This document shows positions 24,209 to 46,210 of a stretch of 58,989 nt of DNA, piece after piece. The notes beneath the pieces were generated by a model, which saw only the letters and a program-made list of their open reading frames with translations, ran no database searches and was not told the DNA's origin. Source of the DNA: Chloroflexota bacterium. GTDB lineage: Bacteria > Chloroflexota > Dehalococcoidia > GIF9 > AB-539-J10. Each line of letters opens with the position of its first letter. Position 1 is the first letter of the stretch. The stretch lies in assembly GCA_048621695.1 (NCBI GenBank), contig JBMCVZ010000001.1, positions 1-58,989 on the forward strand. The letters run 5' to 3'. Made by a program: the position numbers and the translations under genes.

Positions 24209-24218
24209 CACTCAGTTT

Positions 24219-24271
24219 GTCACCCTGAGCAATATCGAAGGGTCTAGGTTCTTCGCTACACTCAGAATGAC
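24219..24271. repeat. Family B palindromic element in the acsE-cdhD spacer
   Basis: The sequence is GTCACCCTGAG-N31-CTCAGAATGAC. Its termini are imperfect inverted copies of the GTCATTCTGAG word seen at 10818 and 10989. Confidence 0.7.
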
Positions 24272-24315
24272 AGGCGGGTTGTTGAATAACCTTGGAAAGT
24301 CAAGGAGGGTAATAA

Positions 24316-25221: not shown

Positions 25222-25223
25222 AG

Positions 25224-27533: not shown

Positions 27534-27565
27534 TAACAGGGAAAATGGCTTAAAAGGAGGAGAAA

Positions 27566-28117
27566 ATGAGTGCAGTAATACCACGGCATAGAGTAAATGT
27601 CTTGACGGGAATCAAATCTGCCAGACTGATCGAAGACCCCGCGGAGTATGCCACTCTGATTAAGAAGGCTAAGAGGCCACTTCTTGTGGTTGGTCCTCTA
27701 TTGCTGGCATCTACAGATGATGGCAAAATCCTTATGGAATATGCCCTGGATATCGCTGAGGCCTGCAATATTCCGATATGTTCAACAGCTCAGACTAAGG
27801 GGAAGATCGTGGAGTTGGGAGTACAGCCAGATTGCTTTTACGATGTAGTTGAGATAGCAAACGCTCTTAAAGACCCTGACTGGCAGGGAGTTAAGAAGGA
27901 AGGAAACCATGACCTGGTAATGTTTTTCGGTATACGGTCTGATCTTGGTAACCAGGGTCTTTCTACACTCAAACACTTCGCACCTCATCTAAAGACTATG
28001 ACGTTGTGCAAGCATTACTTCCCTCATGCCAACTACTCACTCCCTAATTTCAAGAAGGATGCGAAGTGGCTGGAGTTCTTAGAAGGATTGATAGCCAATT
28101 TAAAGAAAGGAGACTAA
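27566..28117 (+). CDS. cdhB: ACDS epsilon subunit
   Basis: It is a 183-aa protein directly after cdhA and before cdhC. That size and position match CdhB, which is known only from archaeal-type complexes. Confidence 0.7.
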   Translation: MSAVIPRHRVNVLTGIKSARLIEDPAEYATLIKKAKRPLLVVGPLLLASTDDGKILMEYALDIAEACNIPICSTAQTKGKIVELGVQPDCFYDVVEIANALKDPDWQGVKKEGNHDLVMFFGIRSDLGNQGLSTLKHFAPHLKTMTLCKHYFPHANYSLPNFKKDAKWLEFLEGLIANLKKGD

Positions 28118-28123
28118 AGGAAA

Positions 28124-29371
28124 ATGGAAGGCGAATTTCATGCAGATATAGGACCACAGTATGAAGGCGAGGTGATAAGGAAGGAAGACCTGTACATCGA
28201 GTTCGGTGGGCCAAAAGTAGCACATAAGTTTGAATTAGCAACAGTCAAAAGTCCTGATGAAATAGAGAATGAGAAAGTAGAGGTCATCGGCCCGGACATA
28301 GCTGATTTGAAACCTTACGATGCAGAAAAAGGCGGTGGCAGCTATCCTATTGGTATTCTGGTAGACGTTGCCGGAGGGGAATTGGACAAGGATGCCGAAG
28401 CCATCATTGAAAGAAGGATTCATATGTTCACCAATATGATTGAGGGTTGGTATCACATGAATCAGAGGCAGGATGTATGGATGAGGATAAATAAGGATGC
28501 CTATAAAAAGGGCTTTACTTCCCTGCGAGAACTGGGAGAAATTTATGTCTTGCTTTATACATCGGAAATGCCAATCATTGAGAGCATCCAGGTAACTATT
28601 ATCACCGATGAAAAGAAGATAGAAGAGCTTCTTCCCCACGCTTTGGAAGTTTATGCTGCCAGGGATGAACGTGCGAGGACCTTGAATGATGAGGATGTGG
28701 ATACCTTTTACGGCTGCGTTTTATGCCAGAGCTTCGCGCCAACGCATGTCTCTATCATAACTCCAAATAGAATTGCCAACTGTGGAGCGATAAACTGGTT
28801 CGACGGCAGAGCCGCTGCCAAGATTGACCCTGATGGGCCCATATTTGCCATACCAAAGGGAGAGCTTGTAGATTCGGTAAGAGGTGAATATTCAGGAGCG
28901 AATGCAGTTGAAGCTGAAAAATCTCTGGGAAACTACGATAGAGTATATCTCTATAGTGCATTTGAGCACCCCCATACATCTTGTGGCTGTTTCGAAGCAA
29001 TTGTATATTACATTCCCGAAACGGATGCCTTTGGAGTAGTGCATAGAGAATACAAGGGCGAAACTGTAATTGGAGAGACATTTTCCCATATGGCTGGTGA
29101 AACTTCTGGGGGAAAACAAATAGAGGGAAGATTGGGAACTGGACTGGAGCAATTGAGGTCTCCCAAGTTCATCCAGGCGGATGGTGGTCTGGCCAGAATA
29201 GTGTGGATGCCCAAGGAGCTAAAGGAAAGATTTAAAGATGCTCTGGAGGCGAAGGGACTCTACGACAAAATAGCCAGCGAGGATGACGCTAAAAATGTGG
29301 ATGAGCTTCTAGAGTTCTTAGAAAAAGCGGGCCATCCCTGGTTAAAAGGGGAAGTACAACTGCCAACATAA
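28124..29371 (+). CDS. cdhC: ACDS beta subunit (acetyl-CoA synthase, A-cluster), short archaeal-type form
   Basis: The motifs FYGCVLCQSFAPTHVSIITPNRIANCGAINWFDGRAA and HTSCGCFEA (Cys-Gly-Cys Ni site) are present. At 415 aa it lacks the long N-terminal domain of bacterial AcsB. Confidence 0.9.
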   Translation: MEGEFHADIGPQYEGEVIRKEDLYIEFGGPKVAHKFELATVKSPDEIENEKVEVIGPDIADLKPYDAEKGGGSYPIGILVDVAGGELDKDAEAIIERRIHMFTNMIEGWYHMNQRQDVWMRINKDAYKKGFTSLRELGEIYVLLYTSEMPIIESIQVTIITDEKKIEELLPHALEVYAARDERARTLNDEDVDTFYGCVLCQSFAPTHVSIITPNRIANCGAINWFDGRAAAKIDPDGPIFAIPKGELVDSVRGEYSGANAVEAEKSLGNYDRVYLYSAFEHPHTSCGCFEAIVYYIPETDAFGVVHREYKGETVIGETFSHMAGETSGGKQIEGRLGTGLEQLRSPKFIQADGGLARIVWMPKELKERFKDALEAKGLYDKIASEDDAKNVDELLEFLEKAGHPWLKGEVQLPT

Positions 29372-29375
29372 ATAT

Positions 29376-29421
29376 TAGTCAGTAGTCAGTAGTCAGCTAA
29401 CTGAAAGCTGAAAGCTGATAG
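29376..29421. repeat. Two back-to-back heptamer triplets in the cdhC-cdhE spacer
   Basis: (TAGTCAG)x3 lies at 29376-29396, then CTAA, then CTGAAAG-CTGAAAG-CTGATAG at 29401-21. The complementary word CTGACTA recurs at 55464-55477 and 56214-56230. Confidence 0.8.
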
Positions 29422-29440
29422 CTATCTAAGGAGGTTTGTT

Positions 29441-30811
29441 ATGCCGATTGCAGGTTCTGAGATTGTCAAAATGCTTCCCGGAAGGAGACCGTGTAAGGAC
29501 TGTGGCTTCCCTACTTGTTTTGCCTTTGCCATGAAGCTAGCATCAGGTGGAACCACTGTGGACAAATGCCCTTACCTCTCCGAGGAGACAAAAGCCAAGT
29601 TACTGGACCTTCTGGCGCCGCCGATAAAGCTTGTTACTATAGGCTCCGGGGATAAAGCGGTGAAAATAGGGAACGAAGAAGTGATATATCGACATGAGAA
29701 AACATTTGTCCATTCACCAGGCATCGCCCTCCTTATCTCAGATAAAGAAGACAAAGCCAAAATCGAGGAGAAAATAAGAAAGATAAAGGAATTGCAGTTC
29801 CCCTGGGTTGGCGTAAATCTAGAAGCTGACCTCTTAGCACTTCTTTTTGAATCAGGGGACAAGGACAAGTTTTTGGCTTTGGTTAAGAAAGCGTATGATT
29901 CAACGGACACGGGCGTAATCCTAATCTCGGAAGACATGGACGCCTTATTTGCTGCAAGGGATATATGTGCGGACAGGCGCCCACTTATTTACCCCATAAC
30001 CAAAGAAAACATCGATGAGGCCATTCCGAAGATTAAAGCAAATCTTACTCCCGTTGGCCTTCGTGGCCACAGTGTTGAAGAACTTGTCCCTCTAACCACC
30101 AAATTAAAAGATGCCGGGATTGAGGAACTTGTTTTAGACCCTGGCTCTAAGAATTTACTGGAGGCAATAAGAGACCAGACTTTTATCAGGAAGGCAGCGC
30201 TAAAGCAAGGTTTCAAGCCTCTTGGTTATCCCACTATTGGCCTTCCTTGCTTCATGGCCAAAGATGGGCTGAGGGAAATGCTAGTGGGCTCGACATTTAT
30301 AAATAAATGGGCCAGCATTATTGTCTTTTCTGATTTCGACCAGCATTCGCTGTTGCCTATTCTAGTGCAACGGCTTAACATCTATACCGATCCTCGTTTT
30401 CCTATGGCGGTGGAGGAGAAGTATTATGAGGTGGGAGAACCTGATGAATCCTCCCCGGTCCTTGTAACTTCGAACTGGGCTTTGACCTACTTCCTTGTCT
30501 CATCAGCTGTTGAGGCTACCAAAGTTCCTGCTTACGTTTGTGTTAAGGATGCGGAAGGACTTGGTGTCCTTACTGCCTGGGCGGCAGGTAAGTTTAGCGG
30601 CGATTCCGTAGGAACATTTATCAAGAAATGTGGCATCGAGGATAAGGTAAAACATAGAAAATTAGTTATCCCAGGGAAAGTGGCCAGAATCAAGGGTGAG
30701 CTTGAAGATGCTCTGGATCTTAAGTGGGAGATACTAATCGGTCCCCGGGAAACTACGGGAATAGGAGCTTTCCTGCCTGGGTTTGCTAAGCAACTTAAAG
30801 GCCAGTCCTGA
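29441..30811 (+). CDS. cdhE: ACDS gamma subunit / corrinoid Fe-S protein large subunit
   Basis: The N-terminal [4Fe-4S] motif is CKDCGFPTCFAFAMKLASGGTTVDKCPY. The length is 456 aa. An AGGAGG RBS is present. Confidence 0.85.
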   Translation: MPIAGSEIVKMLPGRRPCKDCGFPTCFAFAMKLASGGTTVDKCPYLSEETKAKLLDLLAPPIKLVTIGSGDKAVKIGNEEVIYRHEKTFVHSPGIALLISDKEDKAKIEEKIRKIKELQFPWVGVNLEADLLALLFESGDKDKFLALVKKAYDSTDTGVILISEDMDALFAARDICADRRPLIYPITKENIDEAIPKIKANLTPVGLRGHSVEELVPLTTKLKDAGIEELVLDPGSKNLLEAIRDQTFIRKAALKQGFKPLGYPTIGLPCFMAKDGLREMLVGSTFINKWASIIVFSDFDQHSLLPILVQRLNIYTDPRFPMAVEEKYYEVGEPDESSPVLVTSNWALTYFLVSSAVEATKVPAYVCVKDAEGLGVLTAWAAGKFSGDSVGTFIKKCGIEDKVKHRKLVIPGKVARIKGELEDALDLKWEILIGPRETTGIGAFLPGFAKQLKGQS

Positions 30812-30824
30812 GCTTGTCGAAGGA

Positions 30825-31316
30825 ATGATTACAGAGGAGCAAGCTAGCCAAGTAGTAGCTGATATTTTAAGCTCACATAAAAAAGAGAGGAAAAATTTAA
30901 TCCCACTATTGCAAGAGGTTCAGACAAGCCTGGGGTACCTACCCAGGGAAGCGATGCAAAAAATCGCTGGTTTCTTGGAGATGCCAGAGGTTGAGGTTTG
31001 GGGGGTTGCTACTTTCTATAATCAGTTTCGCTTTGTTCCGTTAGGAAAACGCCACACTGTGGTTTGTATGGGAACTGCCTGTCACTTAGCGGGGGGTAAA
31101 CTTATTTTGGATGCACTGGAACGCGAGTTGGATATCAAAGTAGGAGAGACTTCCGAGGATGGTAATTTTAGCTTGGAAAGGGTCGCTTGTATTGGATGTT
31201 GCATGCTTGCTCCCGTGATTGTAATAGGGGATAAAATTCATCCCAAAATGACTCCTTTTAAAGTGGAGGAGGCTTTAGTACCTTATAAACAAGAACCTCA
31301 GAACGAGAAGAGTTAA
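30825..31316 (+). CDS. NuoE/HydC-like [2Fe-2S] thioredoxin-fold subunit (copy 1)
   Basis: The motifs are LIPLLQEVQTSLGYLPREAMQKIA, VATFYNQFRF, CMGTACHLAGG and CIGCCMLAPV. I prefer the ATG at 30825 because the track start at 30783 overlaps cdhE. Confidence 0.85.
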   Translation: MITEEQASQVVADILSSHKKERKNLIPLLQEVQTSLGYLPREAMQKIAGFLEMPEVEVWGVATFYNQFRFVPLGKRHTVVCMGTACHLAGGKLILDALERELDIKVGETSEDGNFSLERVACIGCCMLAPVIVIGDKIHPKMTPFKVEEALVPYKQEPQNEKS

Positions 31317-31353
31317 GACAGACTCCTACGCCGCCTTTTTCTGTCTCAATCTC

Positions 31354-33267
31354 ATGTGTAGCATGGCTTTCGAGGAAATTAATAATCAAGCGAAGTCGGA
31401 ATGGGAAGCTCTGCAGAAAGGGAGCTATATCCTTATAGGTACAGCTACTTGTGGTCGGGCAGCGGGCGCCTTGGATGTAGTTGATGCCTTTAGCAAGGAA
31501 CTGGTGGGGAGGGGTCTGAAAGTCCCGATTATCCAGACTGGCTGCATAGAGTTATGCTATGCCGATCCCCTGGTTACTATATGTAAGCCCGATTCTCTTC
31601 GCGTCGTGTATAACAATGTAACTCCGGATGTTGTACCCCGCCTTGTGGAAGGCTACATTGTGGGCGATGACCCTTGCCTTGAGCTTGCCTTAGGCACACT
31701 TGAAGGAGACAGCGAAGAAGGTGTTTACATTCCAGAACTTCCCCGGTTTGAACATGAGCTTCGCCTTATACTGGGCCGCTGTGGCTACATTGATCCTGAG
31801 AACATAAACCACTATATCGCCAATGGTGGTTATAGCGGTTTGGAGAAAGCGTTAAAGATGCCGCCGGCGAAGATAATTGGAGAACTGAAGAAATCTGGGT
31901 TGCGAGGGCGTGGAGGGGCTGGATTTCCTACGCACCGGAAGTGGGAGCTATGCCGTAAGGCTAAAAGCAGGCCAAAATATGTCATATGCAATGCTGATGA
32001 AGGAGACCCCGGTGCTTTTATGGACCGGGTCGTTTTGGAAAGCGATCCGCATCAAGTTATTGAGGGCATGATTATTGCTGGCTATACCATAGGCGCTGGG
32101 CAAGGCTATATCTATGTCCGTGCTGAATACCCTTTAGCTATTGAACGTATCCAGATTGCCTTAAAGCAAGCCGAGGAGTTCGGTTTCTTGGGAGATAATA
32201 TCTTAGGTAGTGATTTTAGGTTTCACATCGAGATAGCAGCGGGAGCAGGTGCTTTTGTCTCTGGCGAAGAGACGGCTCTAATGGCAGCTGTTGAAGGAAA
32301 AATGAGCACGCCTAGGCCAAGACCACCTTATCCTGTTGAGCTTGGATTATGGAATAAACCTACCCTGTTAAACAATGTGAAGACCTTTGCTTATGTGCCT
32401 TTGATAATCAAGCGAGGGGGTGATTGGTTTGCCTCCATCGGCAGTGAGGGAAGCAAAGGCACGGCAGTGTTTACCCTGGCAGGCAAAGTCACCGATTCGG
32501 GATTGGCTGAAGTGCCTATGGGAACAACACTTCGTGAGCTTATTTATGATATCGGTGGTGGAATTGCTAAAGATAAACAGTTTAAAGCAGTACAGATAGG
32601 AGGACCCTCGGGAGGTTGTCTCCCCGAGACTTTGCTTGACATACCCATCGATTATGATTCCCTTCGAGAGGCTGGCTCAATGATGGGCTCAGGGGGTATG
32701 ATTGTCATGGATGAAGATAACTGCATGGTCGATGCCGCGAGGTTTTTTCTTGATTTCTCTACCAAGGAATCCTGTGGTAAATGCACCATGTGTCGCTTAG
32801 GCACTTTGCAGATGCTACACATTCTAGAGGATATCACGGCTGGTCGAGGTAAAATAGAGGATGTCGATCTTCTCCTCACGTTAGCCGAGGATGTCAAGAT
32901 AGGCTCGCTCTGCGGCCTAGGAAAAACAGCCCCAAATCCTGTCCTCACAACCCTGCGCTATTTCCGGGACGAATATGAAGCTCATGTCTTAGAGAAGCAC
33001 TGCCCTGCCAGAGTATGTCCTGAACTCACTGTATATTATATCCTTCCCGATAAGTGTGATAGAGCCTGTGAGCATTGTGTTTTGACCTGTCCCACAGAAG
33101 CAATTAAGGGTGGTAAAGGGGAAGTAAAAATCATAGACCAGGAAAAGTGCTCTAAGTGTGGTACATGCTTGGAAGTCTGCCCACCAGAGTATGATGCAGT
33201 GGTGAAGCTATCGCCTGTTAGCTCGCTGCCTTCCGAGAATTTATCTGAGAAGGGGGCTAAGAAATGA
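31354..33267 (+). CDS. NuoF/HydB-like NAD(P)H-binding FMN flavoprotein with N-terminal thioredoxin-like domain and C-terminal 2x[4Fe-4S] (copy 1)
   Basis: The motifs are GLRGRGGAGFPT, CNADEGDPGAFMDR, ESCGKCTMCRLG, and terminal ferredoxin motifs (CEHCVLTCP, CSKCGTCLEVCP). The length is 637 aa. Confidence 0.9.
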   Translation: MCSMAFEEINNQAKSEWEALQKGSYILIGTATCGRAAGALDVVDAFSKELVGRGLKVPIIQTGCIELCYADPLVTICKPDSLRVVYNNVTPDVVPRLVEGYIVGDDPCLELALGTLEGDSEEGVYIPELPRFEHELRLILGRCGYIDPENINHYIANGGYSGLEKALKMPPAKIIGELKKSGLRGRGGAGFPTHRKWELCRKAKSRPKYVICNADEGDPGAFMDRVVLESDPHQVIEGMIIAGYTIGAGQGYIYVRAEYPLAIERIQIALKQAEEFGFLGDNILGSDFRFHIEIAAGAGAFVSGEETALMAAVEGKMSTPRPRPPYPVELGLWNKPTLLNNVKTFAYVPLIIKRGGDWFASIGSEGSKGTAVFTLAGKVTDSGLAEVPMGTTLRELIYDIGGGIAKDKQFKAVQIGGPSGGCLPETLLDIPIDYDSLREAGSMMGSGGMIVMDEDNCMVDAARFFLDFSTKESCGKCTMCRLGTLQMLHILEDITAGRGKIEDVDLLLTLAEDVKIGSLCGLGKTAPNPVLTTLRYFRDEYEAHVLEKHCPARVCPELTVYYILPDKCDRACEHCVLTCPTEAIKGGKGEVKIIDQEKCSKCGTCLEVCPPEYDAVVKLSPVSSLPSENLSEKGAKK

Positions 33268-34031
33268 CCAAAACGGTTGCTATCGCAGGAAAAGGAGGTA
33301 CAGGTAAGACCACCATTGCTGCCTTATTAATCAAGCTACTTTCGCAAAAAGGGTTGGTGCTGGCTGTAGATGCTGACCCAAGTACGAATCTTAACCAGGC
33401 GCTGGGCTTGTCTCTGGAGGATAATAAGACTGTGGGCAGAATACGGGAAAAGATGACCGAGGATGTCTCTAAGGGTCGCTTTAGCCCCACCATTGCCAAG
33501 CAGGAATATCTATTTGGTGAGATAATGGAATCTTTAGTGGAGTCCAAGGGCTTTGATCTTTTAGCCATGGGACGTCCAGAAGGGCCTGGATGCTATTGTG
33601 CCTCTAATGAGTTTTTGCGCGTCTCATTAGATAAGCTAGTGAAAGATTATAAGTATAATTATATTGTTATGGACTGTGAGGCAGGCATGGAACACATTAG
33701 TCGCCAAACAACCAGGGATGTGGATGTATTGCTTATTATGTCTGACCCTACCATAAGAGGCATCACCACAGCTGCGCGTATGAAAGACCTCATTGGGGAA
33801 CTAAGGTCAAAGATAGACAAAGTCGGGCTTATAGTCAATCGTGTCAAAGGTGAGTTATCTCCAGAGATAAAAAAGGCAATCGATGAATCTGGCCTTCAGG
33901 TTATTGCACTTATACCAGAAGACTCTAATATGGCGGGTCTAGAAATGACGGGAAGACCCATCACTGAACTCCCCGGTGAATCTCCACTTCAATTGAAGGT
34001 CAAGGAGATGATTGACGGCTTGGGTTTATGA
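33264..34031 (+). CDS. cooC: CODH/ACS nickel-insertion ATPase CooC/AcsF family
   Basis: It has the deviant Walker A AIAGKGGTGKTT and the CxC metal motif (GPGCYCASN). It overlaps the nuoF-like stop by 4 nt (ATGA). Confidence 0.85.
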   Translation: MTKTVAIAGKGGTGKTTIAALLIKLLSQKGLVLAVDADPSTNLNQALGLSLEDNKTVGRIREKMTEDVSKGRFSPTIAKQEYLFGEIMESLVESKGFDLLAMGRPEGPGCYCASNEFLRVSLDKLVKDYKYNYIVMDCEAGMEHISRQTTRDVDVLLIMSDPTIRGITTAARMKDLIGELRSKIDKVGLIVNRVKGELSPEIKKAIDESGLQVIALIPEDSNMAGLEMTGRPITELPGESPLQLKVKEMIDGLGL

Positions 34032-34095
34032 TTGAGGAAATATCCTCCCGTGGTGGAGGATTTGCAAAAATAAGTCGAAAGGCAGGTAAGGACTT

Positions 34096-34959
34096 ATGGA
34101 TACAAAAGAATACCCGGCGATATGGTTGCAGACCGCTGGATGTACTGGGTGCTCAGTCTCTCTTCTCAACGTTATAAATCCCTCTATTAAAAATCTTTTG
34201 GTTGATGAAGTACTCCCAGGCAGTCATGTGAATCTAAGATTTCACCCTACTGTCATGGCGGGTTCGGGGGAGCCTGCCATCGAAGTTATGGTGGGTACTT
34301 CAGGGAAGAAAAAGGGAGGTTACATCCTGATTATAGAAGGGGCTATACCTACCGCTAAAGGTGGTATCCATGGAATCGTTGGTGAAAAGGATGGTAAGCC
34401 AATGACCATGAAATCATGGGTGGAAACATTAGCCAAGGATGCCCTGGCCGTCATTGCTTTGGGTAGCTGTGCTGCTTTTGGGGGAATTCCCGCTGCGTAT
34501 CCCAACCCTACCCAATGTCGCAGCGTCGGAGAGGTTGTTCAAGCCAAAGGCATCAGCACTCCGGTGGTAAATATCCCTGGTTGTCCACCACACCCTGACT
34601 GGTTTGTAGGCACAGTGGCAACCATCCTGCTTTCTAGTCTGCCCAAACCAGAGGATTTGGATGAACATAGTCGTCCTAAGGCTTTCTACGGGCAAACAAT
34701 CCACGAGAACTGTCCACGGCGAGCTTACTATGATGAAAACAAGTTTGCCAAGAAATTCGGCGAGCCCGGGTGTAATTATGAATTAGGATGCAGGGGGCCT
34801 ATAACCCACGCCGATTGTCCTCTGAGGTTGTGGAACAATAAAGTGAACTGGTGTGTTGGTTGTGGTGCCACTTGTATTGGCTGTACCGAGCCTGAATTCT
34901 TTGACATATCCCCGCTTTATGAAAAAGTGAGCGAAGCTGCTCTGCCAGAGGAGGTTTGA
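34096..34959 (+). CDS. [NiFe]-hydrogenase small subunit, cytoplasmic (no twin-arginine signal)
   Basis: The N-terminus is MDTKEYPAIWLQTAGCTGCSVSLLN. There are proximal, medial and distal cluster Cys motifs (GSCAAFGG, PGCPP, CPRRAYY..C..C, CVGCGATCIGCTEP). No RRxF leader is present. Confidence 0.85.
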   Translation: MDTKEYPAIWLQTAGCTGCSVSLLNVINPSIKNLLVDEVLPGSHVNLRFHPTVMAGSGEPAIEVMVGTSGKKKGGYILIIEGAIPTAKGGIHGIVGEKDGKPMTMKSWVETLAKDALAVIALGSCAAFGGIPAAYPNPTQCRSVGEVVQAKGISTPVVNIPGCPPHPDWFVGTVATILLSSLPKPEDLDEHSRPKAFYGQTIHENCPRRAYYDENKFAKKFGEPGCNYELGCRGPITHADCPLRLWNNKVNWCVGCGATCIGCTEPEFFDISPLYEKVSEAALPEEV

Positions 34960-34963
34960 ATCA

Positions 34964-36523
34964 ATGGGCAAGATCACAATTGATCCAGTAAGTCGTATTG
35001 AAGGACATCTTAAGGTGGAGGTCGTGGTTGAGGGTGGTAAGGTGAAAGAGGCCAAAAGTTCAGGAACGCTGTTCCGCGGCTTAGAGCTGATCATGAGAGG
35101 CAGGGATCCCCGTGATGCCCAGCGGATAGCTCAGCGTATCTGTGGAGTTTGCCCTACAAGCCATTCTACTGCCGCCGCTTTAAACCTGGATAGTGCTTTC
35201 GGCATCGCTGACAAAATCCCTGATAACGGAAGAACTATTCGTAATCTAATTCTGGGTGCAGCTCATATTGCTGACCACATCCTTCATTTCTACCATTTGG
35301 TGGCTCTTGATTATGTAGATGTGGCCAGGTTAGCAAAATACGAGGGGAATAATTCCACCTTAAACTCAATAAAAAACTTTATTGAACGAGGTGAATTAGG
35401 TCCTTTTGTACCTCGTTACGAAGGTGATTATCGGCTGCCGGATGAAGCTAATGAACAAGCAGTAGCTCACTACGTCTCGGCATTTGACATGCGTCGTAAG
35501 GGCCAGGAGATGCTTGCCCTGTTTGGCGGCAAGATGCCTCACAATATGGGCGTAATGCCAGGCGGAGTTGCCTCTATACCCACGGTTGATAATATGACAT
35601 CCTTCTTGTGGAGATTGAAGGAGCTTCAGGAGTTTATTGATAATGTTTACCTCCCCGATGTGCTGGCAGTAGCCCGGGTTTACTCGGATTACTTTGAGAT
35701 TGGCCACGGCTGCGATAATCTACTTGCTTATGGTTCTTATGAGCTGGATGGGAAAGAAGCTGACCTTACCAAGAGAAAAAGATTTTTTAAGCCAGGTATA
35801 ACCTCTACCAGTCTCAGGTTTAATGAATTTGATCCGGCTAAAATCACCGAGGAAGTGAAACATTCCTGGTATGCCAATTCTATCAGCGGCAAACATCCCT
35901 CCCAGGGAGATGTTGTTCTTGATGAAGAGAAGGAGGGAGCTTATTCCTGGCTGAAGTCACCTCGTTATGGTAAAGCAGTTTTCGAAGTTGGACCATTGGC
36001 CCGAATCATGGTCAACTATGCCAGTGGCGACCCGCGGGTCAAGAGCCTGGTTGATTCTGCCTTATCCCGGGCAGGCTTAACCCCCGGTAAGATGTTTTCT
36101 GTCATGGGGCGTAATCTTGCTCGAGCCTTGGAAACGAAACTCATAGCCGATGCTCTGGCAGACTGGGTTCTAGAGCTCAAGCCCGGTGAGCCAGCTTATA
36201 TAAGCTACGAACTCCCAGAAGAAGCCGCTGGAATGGGGCTGGTCGGTGCAGCCAGGGGTGCCCTAGGGCACTGGATAGAAATAAAGGAACGCAAGATTGC
36301 TAATTACCAGGTCATCACGCCTTCTACCTGGAATATTTCTCCCAAGGATGACGAAGACCAACCTGGACCCTTGGAGCAGTCTATGCTTGGAACTAGTATA
36401 AAGGATGAAGCTAATCCCTTTGAGATAGTGCGTATTGTGAGGTCTTTTGACCCTTGTCTCGCCTGTTCTGTACATTTGCTCAGTCCCAAAGGACATGACC
36501 TGGGGAAATTCAGGGTTTGTTAG
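34964..36523 (+). CDS. [NiFe]-hydrogenase large subunit (Cys-type)
   Basis: The N-terminal motifs are RIEGHLKVEV and QRICGVCPTSH. The C-terminal motif DPCLACSVH is followed by a 15-aa extension, the substrate for the maturation protease. Confidence 0.92.
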   Translation: MGKITIDPVSRIEGHLKVEVVVEGGKVKEAKSSGTLFRGLELIMRGRDPRDAQRIAQRICGVCPTSHSTAAALNLDSAFGIADKIPDNGRTIRNLILGAAHIADHILHFYHLVALDYVDVARLAKYEGNNSTLNSIKNFIERGELGPFVPRYEGDYRLPDEANEQAVAHYVSAFDMRRKGQEMLALFGGKMPHNMGVMPGGVASIPTVDNMTSFLWRLKELQEFIDNVYLPDVLAVARVYSDYFEIGHGCDNLLAYGSYELDGKEADLTKRKRFFKPGITSTSLRFNEFDPAKITEEVKHSWYANSISGKHPSQGDVVLDEEKEGAYSWLKSPRYGKAVFEVGPLARIMVNYASGDPRVKSLVDSALSRAGLTPGKMFSVMGRNLARALETKLIADALADWVLELKPGEPAYISYELPEEAAGMGLVGAARGALGHWIEIKERKIANYQVITPSTWNISPKDDEDQPGPLEQSMLGTSIKDEANPFEIVRIVRSFDPCLACSVHLLSPKGHDLGKFRVC

Positions 36524-36548
36524 TAAAAATTTAGAGGAAATTTAAGGA

Positions 36549-37028
36549 ATGGGAAAATTTGTTCTGGGAATAGGGAATGCCTTATTAAGGGACGAAGGGA
36601 TTGGTTGTCATGTAACACATGCATTAGAGGAAATCCCTCTAACTGATGTAAAAATAATGGATGGTGGCACGTGCCCTGACATATTGCAGTTTCTTGAGAA
36701 TACTGACAAATTGATCATAGTAGATGCTGTTAAGGGTGGGGGAACGCCTGGACAAATTTACCGTTTTCATCTTGAAGACATAACTCTGGAGCAAAAGCCA
36801 TGTCTATCTCTTCACGATGTGGGCTTGGTGGAAAGCTTTGTGCTGATGCAGCTTTGGCACCCGGATTTTATGGGGATAAGTGAAGCCGTAATTATTGGAG
36901 TCGAGCCCAGGGAGATAGACTGGGGATTAGAACTATCGCCGGAACTCCAAGGGAAAATGCCTCAAATAATAGATACAATTCTGGCAGAGCTGAATAATAC
37001 GAATCCTAAAGGAGAGGTAAAATGTTGA
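36549..37028 (+). CDS. Hydrogenase maturation endopeptidase (HyaD/HoxW family)
   Basis: The GIGNALLRDEGIG, DGGT and IVDA motifs are present. The length is 159 aa. Confidence 0.85.
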   Translation: MGKFVLGIGNALLRDEGIGCHVTHALEEIPLTDVKIMDGGTCPDILQFLENTDKLIIVDAVKGGGTPGQIYRFHLEDITLEQKPCLSLHDVGLVESFVLMQLWHPDFMGISEAVIIGVEPREIDWGLELSPELQGKMPQIIDTILAELNNTNPKGEVKC

Positions 37029-37672
37029 TTTCAGAGCAAAAACCTATAGAAGAAATCCTGAGCTATCTCGACGTGGATAAGGATATATTTCTCATTGGCT
37101 GTAAGGCTTGTGCTGAGGGATGGGGGAGTGGGGGAGAAAAACAAGTAGCAGAAATGGGGAAAAGTCTGCAGGAGCAAGGCAAAAATATTACAGGTTCAGT
37201 AGTTGTCGATATGCTGTGCGATAGAGCGTTAACCAAGTTGAAGCTCAGAACCTACAAAAAGGAAATTGCTGCTGCTGATTCTGTCCTGGTTCTGACCGAT
37301 GGGGCTGGAGTGCAGACTGTAGCGGAAGTATTGGATAAGGCAGTACATCCTGGTTGCAACACTCTGTCCTCAGGTGGTTCCCACGCCGAGTGGAAAGAAG
37401 CGGAGCGCTGCCTTGAGTGTGGTGATTGTATGCTGGAGTTTACTGGCGGCATTTGCCCCATTGCTCGATGTTCCAAGCATCTGCTCAATGGTCCCTGTGG
37501 CGGCTCACAAGATGGTAAATGTGAAGTTGACCCTGATATACCATGTGTCTGGCAGCAGATCATCGATCGCCTTACCAGACTAGGACAGCTTGATAAATTA
37601 GAGAGGCTTGTGACACCGAAGAATTGGAGCGTGAGCCTTACATCAGGGCCACCTGTGAAGAGGTTTCCCTAG
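37022..37672 (+). CDS. metV: Methylene-THF reductase small, Cys-rich subunit MetV (MTHFR C-terminal-like domain protein)
   Basis: The motif is CLECGDCMLEFTGGICPIARCSKHLLNGPCGGSQDGKCEV. It overlaps the protease gene by 7 nt and sits immediately upstream of metF. Confidence 0.8.
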   Translation: MLISEQKPIEEILSYLDVDKDIFLIGCKACAEGWGSGGEKQVAEMGKSLQEQGKNITGSVVVDMLCDRALTKLKLRTYKKEIAAADSVLVLTDGAGVQTVAEVLDKAVHPGCNTLSSGGSHAEWKEAERCLECGDCMLEFTGGICPIARCSKHLLNGPCGGSQDGKCEVDPDIPCVWQQIIDRLTRLGQLDKLERLVTPKNWSVSLTSGPPVKRFP

Positions 37673-37704
37673 ATGTGACTATGAGTTAAACAATTGGAGG
37701 CGTA

Positions 37705-38634
37705 ATGAAGACTAAAAGTAATTTGGAAATGGTTCTAGGGGCTGGACAGTTTGCAGTTACAGGTGAATTGGGACCGCCACAAAGCGCCGACTCTGAGACA
37801 ATTAGAAGAAAAGCGAAGATACTCAAGGGTCATGTAGACGCCGTTAATGTCACCGATGGCCAGACTGCAGTGGTGCGCATGTCATCTTGGGCAGCCTGTC
37901 TTATCGGTAAGGAAGAGGGTTTAGACCCTATTGTGCAGATGACTTGCCGTGACCGGAATCGTATTGCCCTTCAAATGGATATTTTAGGCATATCAGCACT
38001 GGGCCTCAATAATATGTTATGTCTCACGGGCGACCACCAGAAATTTGGCAATCATCCTACGGCCAAAGGTGTCTATGATCTCGATTCCATTCAATTTCTT
38101 AAGATGGTGAAGGACATGCGGGATGAGAGAAAGTTCCAGTGTGGCGAAGAGATGACGGTTGAGCCTCGCCTTTTCATCGGAGCTGCTGCCAATCCCTTTG
38201 CTGATCCCCTTGAGTTCAGGGCAGCACGCCTTGGTAAGAAAGTGGCGGCAGGGGCAGATTTCATCCAAACCCAGATTATCTACAATGTAGAGAAGTTCGC
38301 TGAATGGATGAAAATGGTACGGGACAGAGGATTACATGAGAAAGTAAAGATACTTGCTGGTGTTGCTCCCATAAAGTCAGTGGGTGCCGCAAAATATATG
38401 AAAAACAAAGTTCCTGGAATGGATGTGCCTGACAGCGTTGTTGAACGGCTCCAAGGAGTGCCTAAGGAGCAGGTGCCCAATGAGGGCATCAAGCTCTGCA
38501 TTGACATCATCAAGCAAGTACATGAAATTGAAGGTGTGGCGGGTATTCATCTCATGGCTATCGAATGGGAAGAAGTAGTGCCCGAAATAGTAGAGGCAGC
38601 TGGTCTTTTGCCCCGCCCCAAATCTGTACAGTAA
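37705..38634 (+). CDS. metF: 5,10-Methylenetetrahydrofolate reductase MetF
   Basis: It shows the MTHFR TIM-barrel pattern: FAVTGELGPPQSAD, AVNVTDGQTAVVRMSS, LCLTGDH, ADFIQTQIIYN. The length is 309 aa. Confidence 0.85.
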   Translation: MKTKSNLEMVLGAGQFAVTGELGPPQSADSETIRRKAKILKGHVDAVNVTDGQTAVVRMSSWAACLIGKEEGLDPIVQMTCRDRNRIALQMDILGISALGLNNMLCLTGDHQKFGNHPTAKGVYDLDSIQFLKMVKDMRDERKFQCGEEMTVEPRLFIGAAANPFADPLEFRAARLGKKVAAGADFIQTQIIYNVEKFAEWMKMVRDRGLHEKVKILAGVAPIKSVGAAKYMKNKVPGMDVPDSVVERLQGVPKEQVPNEGIKLCIDIIKQVHEIEGVAGIHLMAIEWEEVVPEIVEAAGLLPRPKSVQ

Positions 38635-39281
38635 TGAAAGATTCTAGTTCTTTATCAGACAGTCCCTGGGAACGGGGTTTCGATATCTCTTATAAGCTTG
38701 CTCGTGAGAGGCTGGCCAAAATCAATAATATAAAAGAGCAATGTCGCAAAAGTGGTGCTAGATATCTGGCACCCAACGAGATCGTTATTAATTATCTAAA
38801 TCAACCGTACCATATTACACTTCCCGACATTGATATATTACTGGAGGGCAGTGATGCGAAAGTCCCGCTGAGAGACAAAATCCTGATACTTCACTATTTC
38901 ACTGAAGCAAAGGGTAACCCGGCTGCTGGTAAATTGATTGCCTACAAACAGCTACCGGGAGGCATCAGTTATTTCCCGGCATTTTCCCGAAGAGCAATAA
39001 CTCCTCTTGTAAAGCACTTTGGCAAAAGTCCTGAGATGCTAATAAAGGCAGCGGCAAAGTTAGGAGGCCGCGAGACAGACTACGGGGATGTTTCTGTGAC
39101 CATTAATGCTTTCGACCATGTGCCCATAACCTTAGTGTTATGGAGGGGCGATGCGGAGCTGGCTCCCAATGGAAATATATTGTTCGATGCTAATATCTCT
39201 GATTATCTTTCCACTGAGGATGTAACTGTGCTTACCGAAACTCTTATCTGGAAGCTGGTGAAGGATATTCCATCTGCCTAA
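38634..39281 (+). CDS. DUF3786 domain protein
   Basis: The start MKDSSS... shares 1 nt with the metF stop (TAATG). The pattern ILILHYFTEAKGNPAAGKLIAYKQLPGGISYFPAF...GDVSV...VLWRGDAEL matches my memory of DUF3786, a family often found beside corrinoid and Wood-Ljungdahl genes. Confidence 0.6.
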   Translation: MKDSSSLSDSPWERGFDISYKLARERLAKINNIKEQCRKSGARYLAPNEIVINYLNQPYHITLPDIDILLEGSDAKVPLRDKILILHYFTEAKGNPAAGKLIAYKQLPGGISYFPAFSRRAITPLVKHFGKSPEMLIKAAAKLGGRETDYGDVSVTINAFDHVPITLVLWRGDAELAPNGNILFDANISDYLSTEDVTVLTETLIWKLVKDIPSA

Positions 39282-39508
39282 CCAAATACCTAATAAACTT
39301 GCGCTATCGCTTTGACGCGAAATTAACAATCCCGATGTCTATATTTGCGTTAGCGTCCCAATTTATGATACAGTCCAAGCCTTGAAGCTACTCTCTGGAA
39401 ATTGGTTGGTCGGAAATTTTGAAGGCAACTGTTTCAAACTCTGGGCTTTCCCTCTCCAAGGTCAAGGTGACATAATGTGCCTTATGTTCGTTGAGAAAGG
39501 AATAGGCA

Positions 39509-42500
39509 ATGACTGAAGAAGGCATAATTACATTGAATATTGATGGTAAGAACATAAAAGCTAGGCAGGGGCAGACGATATTGGAGGCTGCCAGAAACTC
39601 AGGAATCTACATTCCCAGTCTTTGTTACTATCCCGGTATAAAACCGCTACCCCAAGTAATTCCTGATGCGGCTTGCCAGCTTTGCGTAGTGGAGACAAAC
39701 AACAATATCGTGCTCTCCTGTGTTACTCCCGTCTCTGAGCGAATGGTAGTTAAGACAAAGACGCCAAAGTTACAAGAACTACAGCAGAAGAAATTGCTTG
39801 TCATTTTAGCTAGACAACCTGCAGATATCTGCTTTGAAAAAAGAAACTGCGAACTTCAGAAAGCCATCGACTATATCGGTTTAAAGGAGATACCTGTCCA
39901 TGTTTCCAGGTCTTTAGCTACTTTAGAGGATAATCCTTTCTTCGCTCGTGATTCAAGCTTTTGCATTTTATGCCATCGCTGTCTTCGGGTCTGCGATGAG
40001 ATAAGAGGACTAGGGGTGATCGAACCTGCCTTTCCATGTTACAAAGCTTGTCCTGCTGGTATAGACGTTCCTCGTTATATTCGCCTTATTGCCAAAGGGA
40101 GACCAAGCGCTGCCTTAGCAGTGATAAGAGAAAAGGTTCCCTTTCCTGCTGTATTGGGTAGAGTATGCGCTGCCCCATGCCAGAAGGAATGTCGGCGTGG
40201 CCTAGACGTGGATGAAACATTACAAATAAGAATTCTTAAGCGCTTTGCCGCTGACAATGGTGATGATAGCTGGAAAAAACAAGCAAAGTCCCTTCCACCA
40301 ACTGGCAAAAGCATAGCGGTAGTTGGGGCGGGACCAGCAGGGCTTACCTGTGCTTATTATCTGGCCAAGCTAGGACACAAGGTAACTGTATTTGAAGCTC
40401 TCCCCGAGCCCGGTGGAATGATGAGAGTGGGGATTCCGGAATATCGCCTTCCGCGGAATATACTCAGCGACGAGATTCGAGAAATTGAGATGGCGGGTGT
40501 GGAAATCAGACTGAACACTCGGGTCGAGTCCTTAGACTCCCTTTTTGAACAGGGATACCAGGCGATTTTTCTAGCCATCGGTGCTCACCAAGAAATGAAG
40601 CTGGGGGTAGAAGGAGAAGGCGTGCTTGGGGTAATTGGGTGTGTTGAATTCCTTCGCCGGTTTAATCTTGGAGAGGAAGTGGAGCTGGGGGATAGGGTAG
40701 GGGTGATTGGTGGAGGAAACGTTGCCCTAGATTCTGCACGCACTGTTATACGGCTTGGCGCTAGGAGAGTGACCATTTTCTACCGCAGGACAAAGAACGA
40801 GATGCCAGCCCAACTAGAAGAGATAGAACAAGCATTGGAGGAGGGAGTTGAAATCATCTTTCTCGTTGCTCCTTCGAAGATTTTCAGAGAGAATGATGAC
40901 CTGAAGCTGGAGTTGATCCGCATGGAGTTAGGAGAGCCTGATGCTAGTGGCAGACGCCGACCTGTTCCGATTAAGGGCACTGAGTTTATCGCTGAGCTTG
41001 ATACTTTAATTGCTGCCATTGGCGAACAACCAGATGTTCCTGCGGGCTTCCAGGTCGAAGTAAAGCGGGGGAATATTTTGAAGGTCAATGAAGACCTAAG
41101 CACGAGTCGAGAGGGCGTTTTTGCTGGAGGTGATTGTGAGAGTGGCCCAGCTTTGGTCATCGATGCTATTGCAGCGGGAAGAAAGGCAGCTCAGTCCATT
41201 GACCGTTATCTTGGTGGCAGAGGGGATATTACAGAGCATCTGGTGCCTGCCGAGGAGGCAATGGCCTGGTTAGAAGATATATCTACAGGAGAAAAATTGG
41301 CTACCATTTCTTATCTTGCGCCACAGACACGCATTGATGGTCTTTCTGAAGTGGAGCAGGGAATGAATTGGGAGACAGCCGTTGCCGAAGCTCAACGCTG
41401 CCTCCAGTGCCATGCTATTGCCCCCTTAAATGAGCGAACACTTCGCGAGGTCGACTGCAAATTCTGCGGTGCCTGCGTTGATTCTTGTCCTACTAATGCC
41501 CTTGTTGATTTGGCTACTCGCGGGCTGGCGGAGCCTGACCGTGTAGTTACCACAATTTGTCCCTATTGTGGTGTTGGCTGCCAGTTAAATCTTCTGGTCA
41601 AGGATGAAAAGATAATAGCTTCCACCCCTGATCCAGATGGTGTGGCTAATCATGGGCAGGCATGTGTTAAAGGTCGCTTTGGCATCGCCGAGTTCGTCCA
41701 TCATCCCGAGAGGCTGACCACTCCCTTGATAAGAAAGAATGGGGAGTTGAAAGAGGCATCCTGGGAAGAAGCACTGGAACTGGTGGCTAAAAAATTGAAG
41801 GGTTACACACCAGCTGAAGTAGGCATCATCGCCTCAGCAAAGTGTACCAATGAAGAAAACTATGTCATGCAAAAATTCGCTCGAGCAGTGCTGGGTACTA
41901 ATAATGTTGATCACTGCGCTCGGCTATGTCATGCCCCTACAGTGGCTGGCCTGGTGCAGAGCTTTGGCAGTGGAGCAATGACTAATTCAATCAATGAAAT
42001 TGGCGACGCCGCTTGTATTTTGGCTATCGGCACTAATACTACAGAAGATCATCCTGTGATTGGGCTTGAGGTGAAGAGAGCAGTAAATAATGGCGGGAAG
42101 CTCATCGTGGCCAACCCCCGCCAGATTGACCTGTGCCACTTCGCCAGCCTCTGGCTGCAGCATAATCCCGGCACAGATGTCGCCCTGCTCATGGGGATGA
42201 TGCGGGTTATAGTAGATGAGGGATTATTGGACTCGGCCTTTATCAAGGATAGATGTGAGAACTTCGATGCTTTCAAGGAGTCGCTAAAAGATTTTGACCT
42301 TGATACTGCTGAGCAAATTACTGGCGTGCCACAGGACAAAATAATCGAAGCTGCCCGTATTTTCGCCACTAATAGTCCTGCCACCATACTTTATTCCATG
42401 GGCATTACTCAGCATTCTCACGGCACTGACAACGTGCTGGCTACCGCCAATCTGGCAATGCTCACCGGCAATATGGGCAAGCCTTCAACCGGGGTCAATC

Positions 42501-43558: not shown

Positions 43559-43596
43559 GCACTTTATAAATAATAGCATTGCGATGCACCAGAGCC

Positions 43597-45925: not shown

Positions 45926-46210
45926 ATGACTAAATGGATTCCAGTAACAAATGAAGAGGTTAAGGAAGGGGTTGTGTCAGAGAGAAGGGATTTACTCGCT
46001 GTTTTAAAGAGAGCGGCTAACGAATCGGAATTCTTGGCGCGATTAGCTGAGAATCCTCACGAGGCTCTAAAAGAGTATTACTCTTTGACTAACGAGGAGA
46101 GAGCTGCCTTAGCCAGCGGGGACATCAGGAAAATAGAATCATGGGTAGGTAAGCTAGATAAAGAGCTAGCTACCTGGCTGTGGTGCCGGCTATCTCAAGA
46201 GAAATGGTGA
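45926..46210 (+). CDS. Small helical protein, free-standing paralog of the C-terminal extension of the downstream FdhA
   Basis: It is 94 aa. Residues ~23-94 (LLAVLKRAANESEFLARLAENPHEALKEYYSLTNEERAALASGDIRKIESWVGKLDKELATWLWCRLSQEKW) align along their full length with the last 70 aa of the 48674..51637 product. The RBS is AAGGA. Confidence 0.6.
   Translation: MTKWIPVTNEEVKEGVVSERRDLLAVLKRAANESEFLARLAENPHEALKEYYSLTNEERAALASGDIRKIESWVGKLDKELATWLWCRLSQEKW

Follow-up and report, generated by a model that had tools for sequence, protein, structure and literature searches.

How electrons reach methylene-tetrahydrofolate (methylene-THF), and whether energy is conserved at that very exergonic step, is a long-standing question in acetogen bioenergetics. 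Reductases of the MetVF type have reportedly lost NADH binding and need an external electron donor, and the physiological donor is still debated (PMC9430772, PMC8760232). Four reductase classes are recognised, namely, MetF, MetVF, MetVF-RnfC2 and MetVF-HdrABC-MvhD, none of which is hydrogenase-linked (PMC9430772, PMC8760232). The question is raised in a new form by a 58,989-nucleotide stretch of DNA from a Chloroflexota bacterium (contig JBMCVZ010000001.1, positions 1 to 58,989 of the forward strand; hereafter the window, meaning the whole stretch), in which the genes of a [NiFe]-hydrogenase run straight into metV and metF. The closest relatives of the contig carry Dehalococcoidia labels, and the NCBI annotation of the window genes is generic. 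An original prediction, made from the letters of the sequence, had taken NuoE- and NuoF-like subunits, CooC, the hydrogenase and MetV/MetF as one translationally coupled block that might encode an undescribed H2- and/or NAD(P)H-linked methylene-THF reductase complex. The block is best explained, in our analysis, as juxtaposed modules inside one Wood-Ljungdahl super-operon; we judge it fairly probable that one of these, comprising the small and large hydrogenase subunits (SSU and LSU), MetV and MetF, would form a four-subunit cytoplasmic H2:methylene-THF oxidoreductase with a dedicated maturation protease.

A conserved unit of hydrogenase, MetV and MetF genes

All genes of the window between 23306 and 43558 lie on the + strand and are separated by short gaps. 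Within this run, the SSU (287 amino acids; PF01058, PF14720) is encoded at 34096-34959, the LSU (519 amino acids; PF00374, 512 bits) at 34964-36523, a hydrogenase maturation endopeptidase of the HycI/HybD family (PF01750, TIGR00072) at 36549-37028, MetV (216 amino acids, 12 cysteines; PF12225, 117 bits) at 37022-37672 and MetF, the catalytic subunit of methylene-THF reductase (309 amino acids; PF02219, 152 bits), at 37705-38634. The presence of MetF (PF02219) with an adjacent MetV (PF12225) assigns the reductase to the MetVF type. Open reading frame (ORF) coordinates and Pfam/NCBIfam matches bore out the predicted gene order, nuoE-nuoF-cooC-SSU-LSU-protease-metV-metF-DUF3786, and the tight junctions proved exact: NuoF and CooC overlap by 4 nt, SSU and LSU are spaced by 4 nt, the protease and MetV overlap by 7 nt, and the last A of the MetF stop codon TAA starts the ATG of the DUF3786 gene (TAATG at 38634; gene at 38634-39281, PF12654). 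The gap between MetV and MetF is 32 nt. These overlaps suggest translational coupling of the block. A promoter and terminator consensus scan of positions 24200-44000 revealed no difference from shuffled sequence.

One genome per GTDB species was scanned with an LSU alignment, which yielded 80 loci with 55-89% LSU identity; these were annotated by tblastn with the window proteins and are cited below, where needed, by L numbers. MetV was located directly downstream of the LSU or its protease, in the order SSU-LSU-(protease)-MetV-MetF, in 61 of the 80 species-level genomes, and MetF followed MetV within 4.5 kb downstream of the LSU in 54 of these 61 loci. In fifteen of the 80, L052 being counted here, the genes ran LSU-protease-SSU and MetVF was absent within 10 kb; four were truncated. 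Carriers bear submitter labels of Dehalococcoidia, Anaerolineae, Actinomycetota, Nitrospira, Planctomycetota, Spirochaetota, Bipolaricaulia, Fraserbacteria, Poribacteria and others, and the same unit was also seen in metagenome contigs. Comparison of gene order across genomes thus upheld the functional link between hydrogenase and MetVF, whose order is kept in 61 of 80 genomes while the flanking genes vary, but not the predicted membership of NuoE and NuoF in that unit.

Cellular location followed the same division. None of the 61 MetVF-linked genomes had a twin-arginine translocation (Tat) signal on the SSU. Of the loci with the order LSU-protease-SSU, all 14 with a readable SSU carried the RRxF motif, and these formed a monophyletic sister clade in a neighbor-joining (NJ) tree. 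The correlation between location and partner was perfect, Tat-less SSUs being MetVF-linked and the Tat-bearing sister clade never being so within 10 kb. The SSU tail after the last Cys motif measured 22-34 amino acids in MetVF-linked members (45 in one of them) versus 65-93 amino acids in the Tat clade. The orphan LSU of L052 (10001-11557), which is 64% identical to the window LSU and has a classical Tat-type group 1 hydrogenase 0.6 kb downstream, is the sole exception to MetVF linkage.

We clustered all flanking ORFs in 63 MetVF-linked loci. The LSU was found in 63, MetV in 60, the SSU in 57, MetF in 51 and the protease in 35, where the endopeptidase directly followed the LSU; any other family occurred in 13 loci at most. 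The minor families were response regulators, FolD, CdhE, CooC, DUF3786, NuoEF, Fhs, sensor kinases with a cyclic-nucleotide-binding (cNMP) domain, an EtfA-like protein and a membrane CCG protein, and no further common partner of the unit emerged among the clustered ORFs of the 63 loci. Among the 61 loci defined above, NuoEF lay upstream in 6 and downstream beside a formate dehydrogenase (Fdh) in 5, and HdrA/MvhD was present in 7. Neither NuoEF nor HdrA/MvhD was found in the fetched flanks of 43, many of them with the full 10 kb on both sides.

Some lineages carry additions to this unit. HdrA and MvhD genes precede it in L004, L023, L031, L036 and L040; the arrangement in L004 (770-13171), shared by the other four, consists of two HdrA-like genes (1011 and 945 amino acids) and MvhD/FlpD directly 5' of the Tat-less hydrogenase-MetVF genes, without HdrBC. 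Short ORFs of 63, 48 and 66 amino acids just 5' of the HdrA-/FlpD-like genes in these loci suggest gene calls split by in-frame TGA (selenocysteine) codons. Sensor histidine kinases with an N-terminal cNMP domain, frequently accompanied by one or two response regulators made up of a receiver alone, were observed within or just after the unit in several lineages (L016, 8073-9239; L023, 12729-13910; L036, 11627-13510; L013, 13642-14784; L004, 13296-15326).

When 88 MetV copies drawn from all loci were placed in an NJ tree, those lying directly downstream of a hydrogenase all fell into one clade, apart from the MvhD-linked, RnfC2-linked and tandem second copies. Because the hydrogenase-adjacent copies form a separate clade, the tree indicates that the hydrogenase has a dedicated MetV paralogue, which we name MetV_H. 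Tandem MetV pairs were present between the protease and MetF in L006 (12059-13436), L008, L009, L011, L087 and L133, with the hydrogenase-type copy first; the second copy is only about 42% identical to the window MetV, and the window has the hydrogenase-type copy only. Searched by sequence against all PDB chains, MetV had no match, so that no structural template for the interface was available. An MvhD-like docking domain in the MetV N terminus was considered and discarded, the profile-profile comparison with MvhD giving a probability of 3.9%.

Metagenome contigs, which we scanned with the window NuoF and annotated by tblastn with the window proteins, gave the strongest single reason for regarding the hydrogenase as the module through which electrons enter MetVF. 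The frame Cdh-NuoE-NuoF-CooC-[X]-DUF3786, where Cdh stands for the genes of an archaeal-type CODH/ACS (carbon monoxide dehydrogenase/acetyl-CoA synthase), was found there in three states. In the window and in L086, L087, L090, L126 and L133, X is SSU-LSU-protease-MetV-MetF; L136 has the same order from NuoF to MetF, its contig ending before Cdh and DUF3786. In L095 and L098, X is a 675-amino-acid fusion followed by MetV-MetF, and this fusion (L095, 12091-14118) joins a MetV-like domain (PF12225) to RnfC_N, Complex1_51K, SLBB and 2x[4Fe-4S] domains; an RnfC2-type NADH module fused to a MetV-like domain thus occupies the slot of the hydrogenase. In L094, L097, L099 and L101, X is nothing and DUF3786 directly follows CooC. 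Since this last state exists, NuoEF-CooC is independent of the hydrogenase.

Type and location of the hydrogenase

Both subunits found their best matches among group 1 enzymes. For the LSU these were the periplasmic group 1 chains 1h2a_L and 5jsu_B, at about 441 bits, and the nearest solved structures are those of groups 1a/1b; group 3 enzymes (Mvh, Frh, Hox and HydL of HydABCSL) reached only about 100 bits, over the N terminus only. The LSU exceeded the curated cutoff of NCBIfam NF033181 (700 bits versus 600) and carries both nickel-binding motifs, QRICGVCPTSH (the N-terminal RxCGxC) and DPCLACSVH (the C-terminal DPCxxCxxH), with cysteine and not selenocysteine. It extends 15 amino acids beyond DPCLACSVH, and its own endopeptidase gene comes next. 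The SSU best matched the small subunit of the D. baculatum [NiFeSe]-hydrogenase (1cc1_S, 276 bits), with whose mature chain it aligned end to end, SSU residue 3 standing opposite template residue 5. Every Cys/His cluster ligand of 1cc1_S was aligned to a Cys or His in the SSU, which accounts for the proximal, medial and distal clusters (PF01058 plus PF14720). Because the active-site motifs and the ligands of the three clusters are intact, and because of the C-terminal extension and the endopeptidase, the hydrogenase looks catalytic.

No Tat signal was detected on the window SSU: the protein begins only three residues ahead of the alignment with the mature chain, the RRxF motif is missing, and the upstream frame is closed and leaves no room for a signal. 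Since there is neither a Tat signal nor an upstream open frame, the SSU is predicted to be cytoplasmic, as originally proposed. No cytochrome b or c gene and no membrane anchor was found beside the hydrogenase-MetVF unit, and the C-terminal tail of the SSU is short. Judged by its sequence, the enzyme looks like a catalytic, cytoplasmic, group-1-like heterodimer without a cytochrome partner. It resembles the periplasmic group 1a/1b [NiFe]- and [NiFeSe]-hydrogenases (D. baculatum, 1cc1; D. vulgaris Hildenborough, 5jsu; D. vulgaris Miyazaki, 1h2a) in the matches of both subunits, the motifs, the cluster ligands and the extension with its endopeptidase, but differs from them by the absence of a Tat signal, a long tail and a cytochrome partner, by Cys in place of selenocysteine and by having MetVF as genetic partner.

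Two other assignments were examined and rejected. Membership in the Hox (group 3d) or HydABCSL enzymes did not fit the LSU, which matched 5xf9_D and 7t2r_D at 96 and 100 bits, respectively, over the N terminus only, nor the SSU, which contains the group 1 domain PF14720. Membership in the regulatory H2-sensing hydrogenases (group 2b) did not fit the 15-amino-acid extension and the dedicated protease, and the kinase of the window is encoded on the opposite strand, 5 kb downstream of MetF. The expectation that the LSU would lack its extension wherever the protease gene is absent also failed: it held in about six loci (e.g., L043, L044, L047 and L049-L051), but 25 protease-less loci retain the extension. 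In L051 (1264-3408), the LSU stops exactly at the C-terminal His, without extension, and a single stop codon separates it from MetV, which is in the same frame. The 90%-identity protein cluster that contains the window SSU also holds large subunits of 519 and 534 amino acids, which may reflect an artefact of the clustering or the presence, in the collection, of a few SSU-LSU ORFs that are fused or wrongly called.

NuoE, NuoF, CooC and the connector question

Upstream of the hydrogenase, the run begins with a pterin-binding methyltransferase (23306-24208) and an archaeal-type CODH/ACS whose genes are named here CdhD, CdhA, CdhB, CdhC and CdhE (24316-30811); the Pfam basis for this part is PF00809, PF03599, PF03063, PF02552, PF03598/PF19436 and PF04060. 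There follow a NuoE/HydC-like [2Fe-2S] subunit (30825-31316, PF01257; start ATG at 30825, the longest ORF beginning at TTG 30783), a NuoF/HydB-like flavoprotein (31354-33267; PF01512, PF10589, Fer4) and a CooC-type ATPase for nickel insertion into CODH (33264-34031, PF01656). NuoF has an N-terminal thioredoxin-like ([2Fe-2S]) domain and a C-terminal 2x[4Fe-4S] domain, and its full-length PDB matches were 7t2r_B, the HydB of the bifurcating [NiFe] enzyme HydABCSL (best, 738 bits), followed by 9n5u_B (deposited as NfnB), 9bov_B, 8oh5_B (deposited as HoxF) and 7q4v_B. NuoF and NuoE (PF01257) are accordingly of the BfuB and BfuC types. CooC carries, in GPGCYC, the CxC nickel motif of CODH maturation factors.

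The conserved neighbor of NuoF is CdhE, not the hydrogenase. A BfuB/BfuC-type NuoF/NuoE pair was observed right after a gamma-type (FeS-domain) CdhE in the window (24316-34031), L094, L097, L099, L101, L104, L125 and L161. The NuoEF of L094, L097, L099 and L101 is of the same type and 72-82% identical, and the order CdhE-NuoE-NuoF-CooC is kept in these loci without hydrogenase or MetVF. CooC travels with Cdh, following Cdh-NuoEF in L094, L097 and L099 without a hydrogenase. In L104 (63% identity) and L125 (57%), a stand-alone HoxU/NuoG-like Fe-S protein of 225 amino acids is encoded right after the Cdh-linked NuoEF, the start and stop codons overlapping. These arrangements hint that the acetyl-CoA decarbonylase/synthase (ACDS) carries an electron module that is bifurcating or linked to NAD(P)H; we know of no description of such a module. 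On sequence and gene order, NuoE/NuoF and CooC are a separate module of the archaeal-type CODH/ACS and not part of the hydrogenase-MetVF core. The proposal that NuoE and NuoF belong to the hydrogenase-MetVF unit was thus contradicted by NuoEF lying upstream in only 6 of 61 loci, by the 43 loci with neither NuoEF nor HdrA/MvhD and by CdhE-NuoEF-CooC without hydrogenase elsewhere. The alternative of one hydrogenase feeding both ACDS and MetFV found no comparative support, and without bifurcation the reduction of CO2 to CO (about -520 mV) is out of reach for H2 (-414 mV).

We nevertheless weighed the possibility that NuoE/NuoF, the hydrogenase and MetVF build one bifurcating complex, linked to H2 and/or NAD(P)H, in which a ferredoxin-like domain, at the C terminus of the HydB-type NuoF, stands in for the missing NuoG/HoxU connector. 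Its attraction lies in a NuoF that is full-length BfuB/HydB type, with the HydB of bifurcating HydABCSL as best PDB match, and that sits 0.8 kb upstream of the hydrogenase in the same tight run, with no stand-alone BfuA gene after the window NuoEF, unlike in L104 and L125. The order NuoEF-CooC-SSU-LSU-protease-MetV-MetF is, moreover, kept in the close Dehalococcoidia relatives L001, L006, L038, L086, L087, L090, L126 and L133, and in L024, where two distant CooC-like genes (27-29% identical) replace CooC. We consider such a complex unlikely, as NuoEF and the hydrogenase-MetVF cassette occur independently of each other, the latter in the 43 loci mentioned and CdhE-NuoEF-CooC in the six without hydrogenase (L094, L095, L097, L098, L099 and L101). 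A CODH maturation factor, CooC, stands between NuoF and the hydrogenase, a NuoG/HoxU-like module is available elsewhere in the window, and NAD+ and methylene-THF both lie downhill from H2, so that there is no thermodynamic need for bifurcation. Likeness to HydABCSL (Acetomicrobium mobile) and Hox (group 3d) is confined to NuoF, nearest to HydB (7t2r_B), and NuoE, which is HoxE/HydC-like; the window LSU is of another type, HydA/HoxU is not encoded next to it, and it is with Cdh that NuoEF segregates.

The available NuoG/HoxU-like module heads a 1349-amino-acid fusion protein encoded three genes after MetF (39509-43558, + strand). Its N terminus is of the NuoG/HoxU [2Fe-2S]/[4Fe-4S] type (PF13510, E 1e-15), matches complex I NuoG chains and HydA1 over residues 7-168 and shares 37% identity with the HoxU-like protein that stands alone in L104. 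Next come an NfnB/GltD-like flavoprotein part and the alpha part of a formate dehydrogenase (PF13510, PF14691, PF07992, PF04879, PF00384 and PF01568 in all). The Fdh part scored above the FdhA equivalog cutoff (TIGR01591, 892 bits versus 666), has the Cys-His motif ARLCHAP and had PDB 7qv7 among its matches. Residues 175-636 matched 9bov_A ('Molybdopterin oxidoreductase' as deposited), 8oh5_C ('Formate dehydrogenase-O major subunit') and 9n5u_A ('NfnA'), which have the same layout of Fe-S N terminus, NfnB/GltD-like flavoprotein and molybdopterin domain. We take 8oh5 to be the Sporomusa Stn transhydrogenase, and the three together to represent Stn and Bfu-type NfnABC transhydrogenases.

The position of this ORF above the FdhA cutoff, together with the Cys-His motif, makes it likely to be an active formate dehydrogenase. 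By its domains, it is also a candidate BfuA/StnC-type partner of NuoEF: NuoE, NuoF and the 1349-amino-acid ORF reproduce the three-subunit layout of the 8oh5, 9bov and 9n5u complexes, but differ from them in a C-terminal molybdopterin domain above the FdhA cutoff with the Cys-His motif and in three genes that are not contiguous. The candidate is not adjacent to NuoF, and L006, L009 and L087 have NuoEF without it in the fetched flank; the fusion was kept in L001, L010, L019, L024, L115 and L133. The most plausible place for NuoEF in the pathway is on the CODH/ACS or Fdh side, and in this genome it probably works with the downstream StnC-like/FdhA fusion, but the assignment is uncertain because L006, L009 and L087 keep NuoEF without the 1349-amino-acid ORF nearby. 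The original prediction had also claimed that no connector subunit is encoded here. This was correct for HdrA, MvhD and RnfC, homologues of which were absent from the window at E 1e-8, but not for NuoG/HoxU, a domain of this kind heading ORF 39509-43558 and a full NuoG-like N terminus standing on ORF 48674-51637. The module exists in the window only fused, at these two N termini.

The second of these ORFs is the 987-amino-acid FdhA (48674-51637) of what appears from its Pfam domains to be an ordinary Bfu/NAD-type formate dehydrogenase set, comprising a second NuoE-NuoF pair and this FdhA (46214-51637, + strand); its N terminus is 48% identical to the HoxU-like protein of L104. Just 5' of the second NuoE lies a 94-amino-acid ORF (45926-46210), 67% identical to a short part of the 987-amino-acid FdhA, and the same small ORF is found ahead of the second NuoE also in L115 and L123. 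Between the two formate dehydrogenases, the - strand encodes a histidine kinase and a LuxR-type regulator (43597-45758, Pfam), the kinase lying 5 kb downstream of MetF. Directly upstream of the Wood-Ljungdahl run are a 1388-amino-acid protein of the CoA-enzyme activase type, with two BadF/BcrA/BcrD ATPase domains and DUF2229 (16205-20371), and, on the opposite strand to it, a 786-amino-acid protein with five CBM_X2 repeats (20668-23028).

The proposed enzyme, its alternatives and its meaning

From the conserved unit and the RnfC2 swap we infer a physical complex of hydrogenase and MetVF, a path for the electrons and a direction. H2 would be oxidised at the Ni-Fe site of the LSU, and the electrons would pass along the three Fe-S clusters of the SSU to the Fe-S centers of the hydrogenase-specific MetV, with its 12 cysteines, and from there to the flavin of MetF, where methylene-THF would be reduced to methyl-THF. 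The hydrogenase would thereby take the electron-input role that RnfC2 (NADH) has in the Acetobacterium woodii enzyme. With E0' values of -414 and about -200 mV, as used in PMC8760232 and PMC6295475, we calculated a deltaG0' of about -41 kJ/mol, and at 1 Pa H2 the value is still about -13 kJ/mol. The direction from H2 to methylene-THF is favoured; for the window variant, H2 uptake is preferred because the reverse needs H2 below about 0.01 Pa unless coupled. The cost would be that no energy is conserved at the methylene-THF step, and a possible gain is a pull on H2 at very low partial pressure.

Several points weigh against such an H2:methylene-THF enzyme. A direct uncoupled reaction would dissipate about 41 kJ/mol, a loss not to be expected in energy-limited acetogens, and the case for the enzyme is built on gene context. 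Neither the 145 loci nor the 120 closest MetV homologues contained a natural hydrogenase::MetV fusion, and the orphan LSU of L052 has neither SSU nor MetV beside it. Regulator genes (cNMP-domain sensor kinases and response regulators) are often embedded in the loci, leaving room for a sensory role. In the window lineage, NuoEF adjoins hydrogenase-MetVF without a stand-alone BfuA partner beside it, and the taxonomy labels of metagenome-assembled genomes come from submitters and are partly unreliable.

The hydrogenase could also be a general cytoplasmic H2-uptake or -evolving enzyme working through a diffusible carrier, e.g., ferredoxin, and lie near metVF through Wood-Ljungdahl clustering, with co-regulation as the only tie. 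FolD, Fhs, Acs/Cdh and Fdh genes also occur in many loci, and MetVF enzymes accept reduced ferredoxin in vitro (PMC9430772). The adjacency of hydrogenase, MetV and MetF alone is invariant, however, all other Wood-Ljungdahl neighbors being variable, and the 43 loci without NuoEF or Hdr/MvhD present the four to five genes on their own. As MetV_H is a dedicated clade, no conserved ferredoxin-like acceptor subunit lies beside the unit and an RnfC2-type module is swapped in at the same position, we regard mere co-regulation as improbable.

For the lineages that carry a flavoprotein, we give an outside chance to the reading that hydrogenase-MetVF is the exergonic arm of an H2-driven bifurcation (with NuoEF/BfuBC here and HdrA-MvhD in L004, L023 and L036), in which one electron pair from H2 would flow downhill to methylene-THF and cover the cost of reducing ferredoxin, or directly the adjacent CODH/ACS, against the gradient. 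In the HdrA-MvhD variants (L004, L023, L031, L036 and L040), the layout mirrors Mvh-Hdr with MetVF replacing HdrBC, and H2-dependent bifurcation to ferredoxin is conceivable.

There is but a slim chance that the same complex runs in reverse, methyl-THF oxidation driving H2 evolution in syntrophic acetate or methyl-group oxidation. Such a role recalls 'Ca. Syntrophonatronum acetioxidans', for which H2 production by a hydrogenase beside metF has been proposed (PMC6295475), and methyltransferase and corrinoid protein genes lie near Cdh in L104; the HdrA/MvhD variants could confurcate with reduced ferredoxin. Against it, a couple at -200 mV could reduce protons without coupling only if H2 stayed below about 0.01 Pa, as calculated from standard potentials, and neither HdrA/MvhD nor another coupling module is found next to the window core. 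Group 2b sensor hydrogenases are not known to have a C-terminal extension or an endopeptidase, and a role of the hydrogenase as a regulatory H2 sensor for methyl-branch gene expression is highly improbable: cNMP-domain kinases and response regulators do occur in or beside L004, L013, L016, L023 and L036, and a kinase/LuxR pair at 43597-45758 in the window, but the LSU has a cleavable extension and its own endopeptidase, its closest relatives are catalytic group 1 enzymes and regulators are found in a minority of loci (response regulators in 13 of 63).

The proposed H2:methylene-THF oxidoreductase can be set beside known systems. The hydrogen-dependent CO2 reductase of A. woodii and Thermoanaerobacter kivui wires an [FeFe]-hydrogenase by Fe-S subunits to formate dehydrogenase, bypassing soluble carriers; it is alike by analogy only, as a hydrogenase on a Wood-Ljungdahl reductase, the window pairing a [NiFe]-hydrogenase with MetVF. 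With the NADH-dependent MetF-MetV-RnfC2 enzyme of A. woodii (type III), the window shares a MetVF core and one dedicated input module encoded beside it, and an RnfC2-type gene stands in the hydrogenase slot in L095 and L098; the window input, by contrast, would be a [NiFe]-hydrogenase heterodimer acting on H2 and not an FMN/NADH subunit, and MetV falls in a separate clade. Relatives with HdrA-MvhD plus hydrogenase-MetVF resemble Mvh-Hdr and thereby the type IV enzymes, HdrABC-MvhD-MetVF of Moorella thermoacetica and Sporomusa ovata, and the MvhAGD-HdrABC of methanogens, whereas the window itself lacks HdrA, HdrBC and MvhD and has a group-1-like LSU with a best Mvh-type match (9sw2_F) of only 104 bits. 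Type II MetVF enzymes (Clostridium ljungdahlii, Eubacterium callanderi and T. kivui) likewise consist of a MetF plus MetV core without an NAD(P)H-binding subunit (PMC9430772), but they have no adjacent hydrogenase and use reduced ferredoxin in vitro, while the donor proposed for the window is H2 via a bound hydrogenase.

No description of an SSU-LSU-MetV-MetF unit was found in the open-access literature, subscription journals lying outside the search. S. ovata membranes perform H2-dependent methylene-THF reduction, but this was ascribed to periplasmic cytochrome b-containing hydrogenases and a quinone-linked chain, a different arrangement (PMC9430772). The metF beside a [NiFe]-hydrogenase in 'Ca. 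Syntrophonatronum acetioxidans' is a passing remark, with a role in H2 production suggested (PMC6295475), and is a possible instance of the present module. The expressed 'cytoplasmic [NiFe] hydrogenase' of Syntrophaceticus schinkii (SSCH_370002-6) was considered as the same module and rejected, for it consists of a 254-amino-acid SSU and a 437-amino-acid LSU followed by HypA and HypB.

Judged from these genes, hydrogenase-MetVF would be a fifth electron-input class of MetVF reductase and, at the same time, a cytoplasmic branch of group-1-like hydrogenases. If true, there would be a partner-specific cytoplasmic branch within the otherwise periplasmic group 1 [NiFe]-hydrogenases, and genes of this kind would be misread in metagenome surveys that count them as respiratory H2 uptake. 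The HdrA/MvhD-containing variants are a natural candidate for an H2-dependent bifurcating methylene-THF reductase. Bifurcation, if it were to hold, would give the methylene-THF step the energy-coupling site that has long been sought, here with a physical tie to CO2 reduction within one operon. Direct wiring of a hydrogenase to MetVF would, if true, provide a directly testable answer to how methylene-THF is reduced in many uncultivated Wood-Ljungdahl bacteria, among them Dehalococcoidia, Anaerolineae, Planctomycetota, Actinomycetota and Bipolaricaulia.

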